A DNA stretch of 64,000 nt from Botryllus schlosseri (lineage: Eukaryota): NCBI GenBank assembly GCA_051294905.1, contig CM119372.1:21950001-22014000 (forward strand), read 5' to 3'. Positions 1,981 through 46,700 of this stretch are shown one piece after another; position 1 is the first letter of the stretch; each line of letters opens with the position of its first letter. A program made the position numbers and the translations under genes. The notes below the pieces were generated by a model that worked only from the letters and a program-made list of their open reading frames with translations, searched no databases and had not been told where the DNA came from.

Positions 1981-4900
1981 CATAGGCGCCGACTTTTATT
2001 TTTTTACGAGGTGGCGGATTTTTGTGACGTCATAATTGTTCCATATCGATGACTTCATCGTGGCACGAGAACGCACTTTACTGCATGCCGCTGGTGTACG
2101 TGCAGAGTTTAACCATTCCCGTGACGTTTTAATATCGGCCCTGCACTCATTAATATCAATCCATGCAGTCGAATTATTAAATGAAATCCTAAAACGGTAC
2201 GATCATTTGAAGTGTAACGGCGACCTGCGCTACCATTCCGTCCGACGGAATCTTCAGTTGCATCAATGTTATTCACGCGCAATGCCCCGTGTGAGTAACG
2301 AAATAGACTACGCACTGGCCTTGCAAGTAACACGCGAGAACTCTCGAATACTTCCAGCAGACAATAATGATGATTACAAACGCGAAATCGCGCAGCCAAT
2401 CAGTAATTGTCTCCTACGGTTTCTTGCTTCGCGTTGAGCAACTCGCATCGCGGCAATTGCTTGATGATTAAAACATTGGAGCATTTCCCGATTTAAGTTC
2501 GCGAAGCATTTCGGGAGTACATCGGCCAATTCGTAAATTCAATCTGCATGTCGACGGCCGCCAACGCATACTAATTGAATTACGTGTTGAAGGCCGCACA
2601 AACTTCCTTCTACGGCCGCGGGTTGGCCACTTCCGGCCGCATTCCGCGATCTTACCAATAGAGATTAGAGATCCACTGTCTATTTAATGCCTAATAGTTT
2701 AATATTCGATAATGTTGTTCTGGATACGAGTACATCCAGCAATCAAGTTTATCGGAATGTAGAAGGTTCCCTGTTCAAACGAATTCGTATAAAATCAGAA
2801 TTTGTGCCACCCATAATCTTGTGATGCATCACGTTAATAATGAAAGGAACACTGAAAAAGGACATTGAGCGAATTTCGGAGTACGAATGTATCAAGTAGA
2901 TAACAAGAAATATGGATGATGGCAAATGAGAAAGCGTCCATTTTAATCCGTATCGCCACGAATCGGTTTTGAGTCTGACATCGTATTGAGTAGCTTTGGT
3001 GGCAACAATTGTTTTCTTATTATATCTGTGTTTTCTCATTATATCGGTATTTAAGCTGTATTGCTGCATTTCCCGATTAATGCCACTGGCAAAGCATTGT
3101 TATAGAAAGGAATCTGCGCAGAAATGAATTCCAATTTGCAGGCACACACCAACACACCCTCCAATTTCGCGCTCCGATTACCTATCACGAAGCTAGCTAG
3201 CTCATGAATGGTTTTGTAAACGAATATGAGCGCACATAATTTAGATGTCAGAAAAGCAGAAAGTATATTTGGGCGCCCCATCTGGTCGGGAGAGGAGATC
3301 TAGGATGGTGCTTCTCAGCACACGCTAGTCGCGTGGCCAGTCGAAAAATTACGGGAATTCGGATTTTTATTTCAAATTTACCAATATATCATCAATTCAA
3401 TTCGGGTCAAGTACATGTGTAAATAGTGATCATATAATCTCTCCGTATCGACGATTTTAGGCGTATGATAAGCTTGCCGAAGAGTCCGGGAATGCTGTCA
3501 ATTAGCGAGTCCCTGATCTCTGGTGAACAATTAAATACGCGCGCGTATTACGCAGTCTCGGCTACAGTTTTCGCAAATCAAAATGTGCGAACTTGATGGC
3601 ACCGATTTCAAACCTTTGTCGTATTTCAGAACTCGAGACATGATACGCTTCTTCTGATCGTTACGTTCAAGTATTAGCGGGAATCAATTTCGCACGTTAA
3701 AGTCTGTTTGCAGCGATTCGATGTTATGCAGTTTCGCGATGTCGCTTTTTAATCAATATGACATAAAACAATCACTAATTAGCGTTAACTCGACCGCATT
3801 GTCGCCAAACCAGCGAGAGATAGGAGCCAAAGCATGCTAGGCCCGAGACGCGATAGTCAGACCATAGGCCAGCACCAGCATTCAGCAATGATCTTTTCCA
3901 CTCCAGGCATATTGCAGATGCTATTGTGTGAGCCAGGGATGATATCGTGCACACCAGGCCGAAGCCATTAATGCAGATGCGATTGCGCGGTTAAGCGATG
4001 ATATAGTGTGAACTGGGCCTACTGCAGATGCGATTGTTGAAGCCTGCGGAACCAGGCTTGATGGAGACGCGATAAATCAGGCTAGCGTCGATTGCCAAGC
4101 GTACGGAAATGAATGACCTAATTTCGCGACGATCTCAGCGGGAGATAATGACAGATTATTCTCGCTAATTGACAACACGTTTCTCGCAAACCCGCCGCGC
4201 GGAACACTGATTACAAAATTATTGAATCGCAACTGAATATTAGAGTTAGAATGATCATTTCAAAATGACGGGGTTTCGCGTTTTAAATAGGTAAGTTCGA
4301 CCCCCGAAACCCTCGTGGCTACGCGCCTGGCACACGCGCGCGTATCAAAATCGAAGACGTCTCCAACGCGGTCGCATCGATTCGCCTGATTACTAATTAC
4401 TGGTCACAAATCACTTGGGCGTTTGAGCATTTTGTACGAGATGGCCGCCACCTCGTAAATATGGTCTGGGCTAGGGCTGGGCACAATGATTCGAGTACTC
4501 GAATCTGAATCGAGTATTAATGTTAATGATTCGAGTCGAGTAGTAAAAGACGATTTTTTCGAGTACTGAAATTATACGCTCCTCGCAACTGAAAGTTAAT
4601 TTAGTAACGAATACTATAGTTTTTATACTATGTTTCACTGAGGAAGCCTTGAAACCTTGATGTGCCGTGTTGCAGCATAAGAGACACTGTACAAAGTTAC
4701 GATTGTTACTGGAAATAACACATTTCCGAAGTCATGATCATCCCAAAACATTGTCAAATAAGTGCAATGAAATCGGTATGGTTGAAAAAATACCAAATTA
4801 TCTTTAGCGTGACAGATAGCAGGCATTATGTTCTTTGTGGTGGCATAAAACGTACATATTTGAACTTTGGCATGATACATTATGTTGTGACGTCATAATG

Positions 4901-43700: not shown

Positions 43701-46700
43701 AAACGGGCATAAGCGTCATTAATACAGCCCTTTTTGAGTAACATTTTTATTAAATTTTTACGAAAAATTGTGATGTGATGAGGGAATTCTGATGGCCAAT
43801 TCGGAATCAGCACCGTCAAATTAGGTAAACTCAATTATTCGTTCTAAAAAAAGAAAAAGTTAAAAAATGTCGACTAGTGTAACAGGTAATGGCTAGATTG
43901 CGAAACGGTAGTTTCAAACGTTATGGTTGGGCATATTTACTGTGATGAAATATTTGATATGGGCGACAATACGGTGTGAGCGGAACCAAGCAATCCGGTA
44001 CCTAACTTATATTCACTGATACTTTTGTGAAAACATCTTTGTCACTCCATAACTAATGTGCGCGAAGCGCAACAAAATTTCTGGGCCTCACTTGAATTTT
44101 ATGAATATGAAATGTTGGTACTCTGTGAAAACAGCCCCGAAATTCTTCAGGCTATCTTTTGTTTTGGGGTATTAAACTACTTCTACTTGACAAACTGAAA
44201 ATAGCAAAAAGTAAGTGAGTAGATCACAAAATATTACAAAGTAAGTAGAAGTAGAGAAAATCAGATCTACTTGAGTGCTTCTAAAAAGTAGAAGTACTTC
44301 GTTACTGACCACCTCTGCTTCCTAGCAAGAAATTAAAACACTTGGCTTACTTTGCCGCTTTTAATACGTCTCATCAAAAGATCTCTGCTGAATTCCTTGA
44401 CCTCAAAGTCTTCATCCGGCCAGAATTCCCTTCTGTTCGTATCCTGCCAGTCCATGTCAACCACAGCAACCGAGTTTCCTGAATATTTACTGTACGTCAA
44501 ATGGAACACAATAAAGATCGCCCACACCTACCATCGAGAACGAAAGACTCGTTAAACTTTTTCATCCGCAAGTTTTTCAAATCAAGACCATTGTGTCCGT
44601 TTTTTCCAGGGCCCACTAAAATCCATGACAAGCAGTTACAAGAGATTGATTGATTTTTCCTACACACTAAAAGAACTATCACGAAATTAAGTGACTGGAT
44701 CATTCAACGATTTGTATTACAAATGCAGATCCTAACAGCAAATAGCAATAACTGTGTGCTGTTATCATGACGGTTGTTGAACAATAACCAAAACTCATCA
44801 AGGCGCAACAAAGAGTAAATCCTGTTTACGTATGGTGGAGATTGTTGTGTTTTCGTTATTATACGTGACAGGTCCGTTTCCCATTACGTTGGCTTGGACA
44901 AAGTTGCCTCCAGAGATGACCACATGTTTTCCATCAGTATATGGAGTTTTCCCGACGTTGGTCTGAACCACATCTGAAAAAAGAAAACAGTATAGTAACA
45001 TCACCCCTTCTGTTTGAGATTCTTGCCAATCAAGGAATAGTTGACACACAAATCCTTAGTCCATTATCTCGTTACTCAAATCCCTTTAGGGGATCTGTTT
45101 ACTACAACTCAAAATCCTGACCAACTTTATGGACTCAAAAAATATACTATCTTTTGAGCATCGATGAAATGTCAAGTCTATACTATGTCACTGACGTAAA
45201 GTTTATGTTGCATACACTTATATCGAAATATTTCGAAAGGGCAATTTTTAACAGGCACATAACCAGTTGGAGGCGAAGGTAATGCACAACTTTCAAAGGA
45301 AGCTAATGGAACGCACTTCATTTAACATTCAGAATCATGTTTGGATCTATGGTTTGGTTGAAACATCATGAGCCAGCTTCAATGCCGTCCATTGGAAATG
45401 CATCCGAGGTCACCATATTACATAGTAAATCATTGCCAATAACCGACAATTTTTCATAAGACAAAGTCGAGTAATACAGCTCCGATAAAGTGAGGAGATA
45501 GAGGAATTTCAATTAAGTCATATGTAGTGGTCCAGAGGTAATTTTCCCAGACTTTCCCTAATTCATAGTATATGCAACAGAGAACTGCCAAACGTCAAGT
45601 CACCAAACAGAAAAGAATGACATTTCTTACTGCCTCCACTGGCTCTCACGTTTGCCCCACTATTCGATATTCTGTAAGGTAAGGCAAAGCAAATTATGAC
45701 CTTGTTATAATGCAAACCACAATGTCAGCGACTTACGTAGTTGAGTCGCATTGCTCAGGAGTCCAGCTGTAAAATGATCGATGTGAAAGGACTACAGTAG
45801 TAAATTAATGAATAATATCATAAACCGTATGCCAATTGGAATCTGATTAGCAAAATAATGAAGAACTGCAAATAGTTCAAAATTTTTTGAGTAATCTCAA
45901 CAACTCAGGTAGGGTACTGTAACTTTCATAATTTGGTAACTTGGGAACGATATGATCATTGAATGACATAATTTATGTTTTCAAGTCTCTAGCTAGACCA
46001 GCAATACTCATTACTCAAATTAAACAAGGTTTCAAGACTTTCAACCATATGTCAAGTGGACAGAAGCAGAAGCTTGGTGCCAAAACATCAGCTGTTCCAT
46101 ACTGAGCAACTGCCCTCGACACTCAATTTTGACCTCAGATCAGAATAATTCTAGTCTCTGATACTGAGCTGGATAAAGATATTAACACACTGGCGAACTG
46201 ATATCAAAATTTTCATATATGGACTGTGTGAGCACTTTGACTGCATGCGTCAGTGTAATACAGTAGCAGGGATATGTGAGTAACACCTACTGACTACGCT
46301 GGCTATGCATATTTTATGGTAATTCAAAGCATACCCTTTATTCTATAAATATTCTAATAGGCACAAATAAAGTTGTTGTCACAAATAACAAGTATAATGT
46401 GCATTCCGATACTTGGCACAGTAGATCTGCTAAGAGAATGTGTGACTACGTTAAAAATAAAACAAAAGTTGATTGATCTAATTTGGGAATTGAAAAACGG
46501 GGGAGAATTGACAAATTACCATGTTAACGATTTTATCAATGCAATGAAAATAACTTACTTAGTCGATCCGCGATTTGAACTGGGTCCCTCAGGAACTGCA
46601 CTGCAATACGAACAGGATGAAAGGACACAGACATGACCAGAGAAAATCCTGAGAAGGCGTTTCGAAAATGGAGATGTACAGACAGCAGCATTCAATACCA

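Follow-up and report, generated by a model that had tools for sequence, protein, structure and literature searches.

Kinases, adaptors, receptors and fungal pore-formers are known to carry amyloid tags, and so are bacterial caspase-like CHAT domains. The accepted view is that initiator caspases of animals are recruited via CARD or DED, and ascidians were reported to have lost Apaf-1 and caspase-9 (PMC10959488, available sections). Tunicates appear to be without RHIMs in the available part of PMC4262963, and no motif-bearing caspase is named in the available part of PMC13506858. The published HRAM repeat is about 21 aa with a loop of 6-15 aa, hence a period of 27-36 (bioRxiv 10.1101/2020.01.06.895854, partial text). 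The window analysed here, a stretch of 64,000 nucleotides of Botryllus schlosseri DNA (G000:C2:21950001-22014000) within a 495-Mb genome, contained a caspase gene with a two-repeat motif in its prodomain. The observation of this motif was confirmed; the motif is real, conserved and common to a small protein family. The reading preferred here, held with about even confidence, is that a conserved motif common to a CARD-less caspase and small two-repeat proteins likely serves as a homotypic recruitment tag, predicted to be an amyloid-type beta-arch, that would activate the caspase by proximity.

The motif caspase gene contained 17 exons running from 55907 to 13601 on the minus strand and a 519-aa open frame, intact and expressed according to the reads and a tblastn search with an orthologue (Table 1). 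Exons 1-14 had GT-AG ends. Joints 1-2 and 6-7 and all joints after exon 14 were inferred and not taken from read rows, and exons 15-17 rest on tblastn and the open frame to the stop codon. In run X5 the joint between exons 7 and 8 (44973/45631) was covered by 10 RNA reads with 9 start points; one X1 contig also spanned it, runs X7 and X9 gave 0 reads, and run X2 was left out of the evidence. The junction proposed in the first-pass annotation was thus confirmed, and the limits given there for the motif proved to be the outer ends of both exons. Its claim that repeat 1 appears only on splicing was also borne out, as the Asn of repeat 1 was created by the exon 7-8 splice and the spliced frame encoded the claimed peptide. 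The reads mostly differed from the window by several letters per 100 and were therefore from other individuals or a sister lineage. The X1 contig, read by hand against the window at 44830-44854, differed in 4 of the 8 codons that make up the last part of the repeat 2 tail and the stretch following it.

The domain order of the protein was a helical domain (aa 9-89), a linker, the motif (aa 140-197), a weakly conserved stretch and the caspase domain. The caspase was assigned to C14A by its PF00656 domain and intact His-Cys dyad, and the closest solved relative of one tested exon was caspase-2 (E 6e-5). No Pfam match to CARD or DED was found in three full-length orthologues; PF00656 was the only family above cut-off in them, and the protein was therefore taken to have no death fold. 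The N-terminal helical domain (about 80 aa; exons 1-3, 55907-51503) showed 41-48% identity to ascidian orthologues and gave no Pfam or PDB match. Three of the eight listed Atlas clusters for aa 9-89 were SAM at 0.82-0.86, which is a lead only, and hhalign against the SAM profile aligned 39 columns with a score of 11.4, no better than column shuffles. This domain could be a second polymerising module. The other caspases of the genome were single long ORFs, two of them resembling DED and CARD caspases by eye, and an intronless caspase-3/7-like tandem pair lay about 6 kb apart at C11:23255042 and C11:23260796. Many genes of this genome appeared as single long ORFs, among them a p53-family member and a TSR3-like gene besides four caspases (L004-L007, L114, L120; named by eye), in contrast to the 17 exons of the motif caspase.

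Table 1. Features of the motif caspase gene (positions in the window) and of the partner genes (positions in the genome, with the corresponding locus positions in brackets)
Feature	Position	Strand	Basis
Exons 1-2: start codon and first part of helical N-terminal domain	55907-55817, 53447-53341	-	Styela orthologue tblastn, GT-AG frame; exon 2-3 joint in reads
Exons 3-6: end of helical domain and poorly conserved linker	51571-51503, 48497-48421, 46600-46559, 45766-45737	-	Three joints read; 6-7 from GT-AG and frame
Exon 7, 41 nt; 45649-45631 is first half of repeat 1	45671-45631	-	Reads, GT-AG
Exon 8, 144 nt: end of repeat 1, repeat 2 and tail	44973-44830	-	Reads, GT-AG
Repeat 1, second half, at exon 8 start	44954-44973	-	Reads, repeat comparison
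Repeat 2 core, 13 aa, I-S-G-G-N-F-x-Q pattern	44885-44923	-	Orthologue conservation, repeat comparison
Repeat 2 conserved tail, aa 183-197, common to partner proteins	44840-44884	-	Orthologue identity, tail test
Exons 9-10: linker and weakly conserved pre-caspase region	44615-44532, 44478-44351	-	Joints in reads; 12-24% identity
Exons 11-14: caspase large subunit	36281-36208, 32323-32221, 28814-28721, 28495-28355	-	PF00656; joints in contig and reads
Catalytic His (SHG) codon; catalytic Cys (QFCR) codon	28733-28731; 28364-28362	-	Large-subunit exons
Exons 15-17: small subunit and stop codon	18562-18458, 14848-14739, 13720-13601	-	tblastn, open frame; PF00656 on exon 16
Partner A: intronless 176-aa ORF, two units, about 50-aa helical tail	C13:12046081-12046608 (L126:6082-6609)	-	Orthologue-derived pattern
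Partner paralogue, 191 aa, intronless neighbour	C13 about 12047581-12048153 (L126:7582-8154)	-	Search with partner A
Partner paralogue with introns, motif at its start	C4 from 8230590 (L129:9091-9196, L130:85-206, about L130:6840-6965)	+	Search with partner A

Two 13-mers in the prodomain were identical at 9 of 13 residues with a period of 23, in agreement with the repeats first claimed. This match was reached by none of 2000 shuffles of aa 90-271, none of 2000 shuffles of aa 140-200 and 2 of 300 whole-protein shuffles. Different codons were used at 5 of the 9 identical residues (one Ser being AGT in one repeat and TCT in the other), with 25 of 39 nucleotides identical, and the repeats are therefore not a fresh DNA duplication. 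The region was described from the outset as rich in N/Q/G/V/I and poor in charge, and this held for aa 140-197 (N+Q 21%, G 16%, V+I 21%, charged 9%), the caspase domain being 26% charged. The full unit was about 23 aa and included a G-P-V-T-Y-N tail, which the first-pass annotation had left out of the repeat. In the caspase, repeat 2 is thus a complete unit, and repeat 1 is a shortened one without the tail.

A search with one caspase exon against 1.84 billion representatives gave 43 matches, the most identical of which (62%) was a Styela clava protein annotated as caspase-2-like or caspase-7-like. The Styela protein led to three more relatives, one in a further assembly (60%), one in Clavelina (35%) and one in Phallusia, the last with 35% over half the length. 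The Phallusia relative P0048, possibly paralogous or truncated as a model, was without the whole motif region and was excluded from the conservation counts, which come from shallow alignments of 3-4 sequences. Identity to the Styela, further-assembly and Clavelina orthologues, respectively, was 18/29, 21/29 and 12/29 for repeat 2 with its tail, made up of 7/14, 10/14 and 7/14 in the repeat and 11/15, 11/15 and 5/15 in the tail. Repeat 1 with its lead-in was only moderately kept (8/21, 8/21 and 5/21), and the loop between the repeats was identical at 2/8, 2/8 and 1/8 positions. The flanking linkers showed 10-34% identity (5/50, 17/50 and 11/50 in one; 5/24, 4/24 and 3/24 in the other) and the large subunit 60%, 51% and 43%. 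Conservation above the flanking linkers had been set beforehand as one test of the motif, and it came out in favour: repeat 2 with its tail was conserved about as highly as the catalytic domain and above the linkers (12-21 of 29 positions against 10-34%). The period among the four caspases was 23, 25, 29 and 31, so that loop length varied by 8 residues; for Clavelina the register of repeat 1 was chosen by eye and differs from the MAFFT alignment. A region search with P0046 aa 1-235 matched only Styela and missed the Clavelina orthologue, and was thus insensitive.

Partner proteins carrying the motif, which the first-pass annotation had expected, were found in the genome as three small paralogues, though not with the exact pattern SGGNxVQxN that it proposed, which identified no partner. 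The pattern G-G-N-x-V-Q-x-N gave 9 matches against 2 in the control, with 0 of 8 non-self matches in a motif-like context, and a search of the genome with exon 8 returned only exon 8 itself. With a pattern derived from the orthologues, 14 genome matches were obtained and 11 in the control. Of the 14, one was the caspase itself, one was partner A, a real ORF with two units, and 12 were unsupported. To avoid circularity, the matches were then scored by a tail test, which used a caspase-only profile and only the 18 columns after the pattern. Partner A scored 21.4 bits, the maximum of 30,000 random frames was 17.3 bits and the other 12 pattern matches scored at most -6.5 bits. The two paralogues, which were found without the pattern, scored 19.4 and 18.6 bits, and two homologues of the partner from outside the genome (78% and 54% identical) scored 16.1 and 5.3 bits. 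In hhalign, the caspase and partner families aligned over 32 columns, in the motif only, with a probability of 92.5 and E 4.7e-7, the partner alignment including the ORF originally picked by the caspase-derived pattern. The caspase-only HMM matched the partner at E about 0.001 in 1.3 million residues, and by extrapolation this match alone is estimated to be not significant at genome scale.

The period was 36 in all five partner proteins. The first partner unit resembled the caspase tail and the second the caspase core, which together gave one 23-column unit, and a proline stood directly before the conserved Gln in three partner units. No recognised sensor domain was found in the partner proteins, and UBA, a by-eye guess for their C-terminus, did not beat column shuffles. 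Of 87 candidate partner homologues, none carried a Styela or Clavelina name. With a refined pattern 8 matches were obtained, namely the four known genes it was built on and 4 without support; with this pattern and a second protein query, no further carrier was found among the best candidates that these searches score. A fourth partner-like match was weak, contained a stop and was dropped. The two intronless neighbours on C13, set against the intron-bearing paralogue on C4, suggest retrocopies. The C13 pair adjoined a TSR3-like gene (named by eye), and all three paralogues have a helical C-terminal domain of about 50 aa.

The motif was compared with the known amyloid motif classes. The tetrad (V/I)-Q-(V/I/L/C)-G that forms the RHIM core according to the available text of PMC13506858 was absent from all 17 units, and PF12721 (RHIM) matched neither exon 8 nor the orthologues nor the partners; a genome-wide PF12721 search matched nowhere, controls included, and was uninformative. 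There was no match of the motif to HET-s PF11558, to solved HET-s chains, to Pfam PP or to PDB amyloid motifs, and an Atlas search with exon 8 gave no usable match. A weak sub-cut-off match to the glycine-rich phage adhesin Gp38 family was obtained with one of four members (E 0.004). A single-sequence AlphaFold model of the Styela protein had a pLDDT of 35 and was unusable. In comparison with cRHIM, which has a VxxG-type core in Imd-pathway proteins, a hydrophobic residue stood directly before Gly in most units, with no consistent VxxG register. The HRAM layout fitted the partners (36) and two orthologues (29 and 31), the periods of 23 and 25 being short and repeat 1 shortened. The general traits of amyloid signalling motifs were present (20-25 aa, enriched in N/V/G, few charges), and two kinds of signalling protein, the caspase and its small partners, carry the motif in common. 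The initial suggestion of a cryptic or new class proved right, and the interpretation given with it was supported in part. By sequence the motif is neither RHIM nor HRAM; it is probably a homotypic, amyloid-type recruitment motif that replaces the death fold.

In the preferred reading, the motif units of the caspase and the small proteins would bind each other homotypically and stack as an amyloid-type beta-arch in place of a death fold. Such stacking would bring caspase molecules together and trigger activation through proximity, with dimerisation driven by the clustering, by analogy with initiator caspases; the small two-repeat proteins may act as adaptors or decoys. A charge-poor, N/G/V-rich, doubled unit of about 23 aa with a variable loop, common to a caspase without a death fold and to small proteins, fits homotypic amyloid-type recruitment of the sort known for HRAM, RHIM and BASS motifs. 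The length, the N/V/G bias and the pseudo-repeats with a variable loop also fit published motifs (bioRxiv 10.1101/2020.01.06.895854, available part).

The same genome contained a separate NLR head motif. It was rebuilt from the 10 kb upstream of 61 NACHT matches, out of 94, and was present in 16 of the 61. In the remaining 45 regions (among L048-L107), no head motif was seen within 10 kb. With the pooled 17-unit HMM, no NLR head of the caspase motif class was found in the 61 regions, the best scoring 8.1 bits against 7.0 bits antisense. Like the caspase motif, the NLR head motif is short and beta-prone, with two halves and a G-x-N-hydrophobic pattern; unlike it, the NLR head motif belongs to a separate sequence class by HMMER and hhalign. 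The two were treated as separate classes that appear only weakly alike in pattern. An exon upstream of one NACHT gene (L091, oriented about 3400-3600) had a two-half beta-prone motif with a spacing of 16 that was missed by the main NLR head profile, and is possibly another head variant.

The main alternative is that the motif is a non-amyloid linear docking site for a third, globular protein, for which the caspase and the small proteins compete or which they share. Conservation and sharing of the motif would fit any short interaction motif, no amyloid family was matched, and the proline before Gln in three partner units disfavours a continuous strand. Against this, the tandem units, the Asn, Gln and Gly in matching columns, the low charge and the varying loop follow the HRAM/BASS pattern, and 23 residues is long for a linear docking motif; we consider this alternative rather unlikely. 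The units could also fold within one chain, as a beta-roll or hairpin module shuffled between genes with a structural or auto-inhibitory role and no polymerisation. The period fixed at 36 in all partners and the Gp38 match would suit such a module, but the caspase loop varies by 8 residues, repeat 1 is shortened, and one or two beta rungs are unlikely to be stable without stacking, which leaves it clearly unlikely.

In another explanation the caspase would be the direct effector of the large NLR family in this genome, with the NLR head motif as the seed. Run along 17 NLR head motifs, the caspase repeat profile peaked where the two halves of the head motif lie (offsets 0 and 16), and 17 of 18 NLR head-motif ORFs ranked in the top 416 of 7920. 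However, enrichment was similar when the repeat order was swapped (all 18 ORFs in the top 701), HMMER found no relation, the hhalign probability was 0.2 in both comparisons, the 17-unit HMM ranked the best NLR motif only 98th, and in the two-half test no caspase exceeded 7.1 bits, whereas the best control protein reached 9.7 bits. This explanation is very improbable. A neutral origin, with an old duplication in a disordered prodomain and a compositional chance likeness to the partners, would draw on the shallow alignments, on the first picking of the partner by a caspase-derived pattern and on the weak single-match E at genome scale. It is largely refuted and carries very little probability, as conservation of repeat 2 with its tail is about as high as that of the catalytic domain, the residues were kept despite diverged codons, and the tail test uses columns outside the pattern.

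With the homotypic amyloid-type reading, we tentatively suggest, at less than even confidence, that ascidians activate a caspase through an amyloid signalling motif that it carries itself and that a dedicated small two-repeat family seeds or blocks the fibre. If true, it would be the first case in animals of a caspase recruited through prion-like cross-beta templating in place of a death fold, and this one genome would have two motif classes, the NLR head motif being the other. An amyloid-tagged caspase in the sister group of vertebrates would widen animal amyloid signalling and would offer a route of caspase activation in a lineage reported to be without Apaf-1 and caspase-9. The caspase-partner pair is small, has known coordinates and is directly testable with peptides. 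No published description of the motif or the pair was found in the literature covered, which lay mostly outside subscription journals.

Among the described systems, two Ciona proteins, the CARD-less Ci-caspase X of the caspase-2 group and Ci-caspase Y, resemble the motif caspase as divergent ascidian caspases without a recognisable death-fold prodomain; no repeat motif is described for them in the available part of PMC10923776, and the likeness is by description. RHIM (PF12721) and the insect cRHIM (PMC4262963 and PMC13506858, available parts) are likewise short, non-globular animal motifs at the usual death-fold site, often in tandem. Unlike them, the caspase and partner units are without the core tetrad, and no RHIM caspase is described in the available parts of these two sources. 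The HRAM/HET-s prion-forming domain (PF11558; PMC7889193 and bioRxiv 10.1101/2020.01.06.895854, in part) is similar in its pair of pseudo-repeats of about 21-23 aa, variable loop, N/V/G bias, conserved glycine and attached cell-death effector. In contrast, the effector here is a caspase with the motif N-terminal and the periods of 23 and 25 fall below the HRAM range. An NLR with one N-terminal copy of the motif, as in the HRAM and BASS systems, was not found for the motif caspase in the upstream regions (10 kb) of the 61 NACHT matches covered, out of 94. The bacterial BASS motifs with CHAT effectors also couple an amyloid-type motif to a caspase-fold protease, and some BASS are doubled (bioRxiv 10.1101/2020.01.06.895854 and PMC7889193, available parts); the likeness is to their description, and the present system differs in having an animal C14A caspase and spliced genes.
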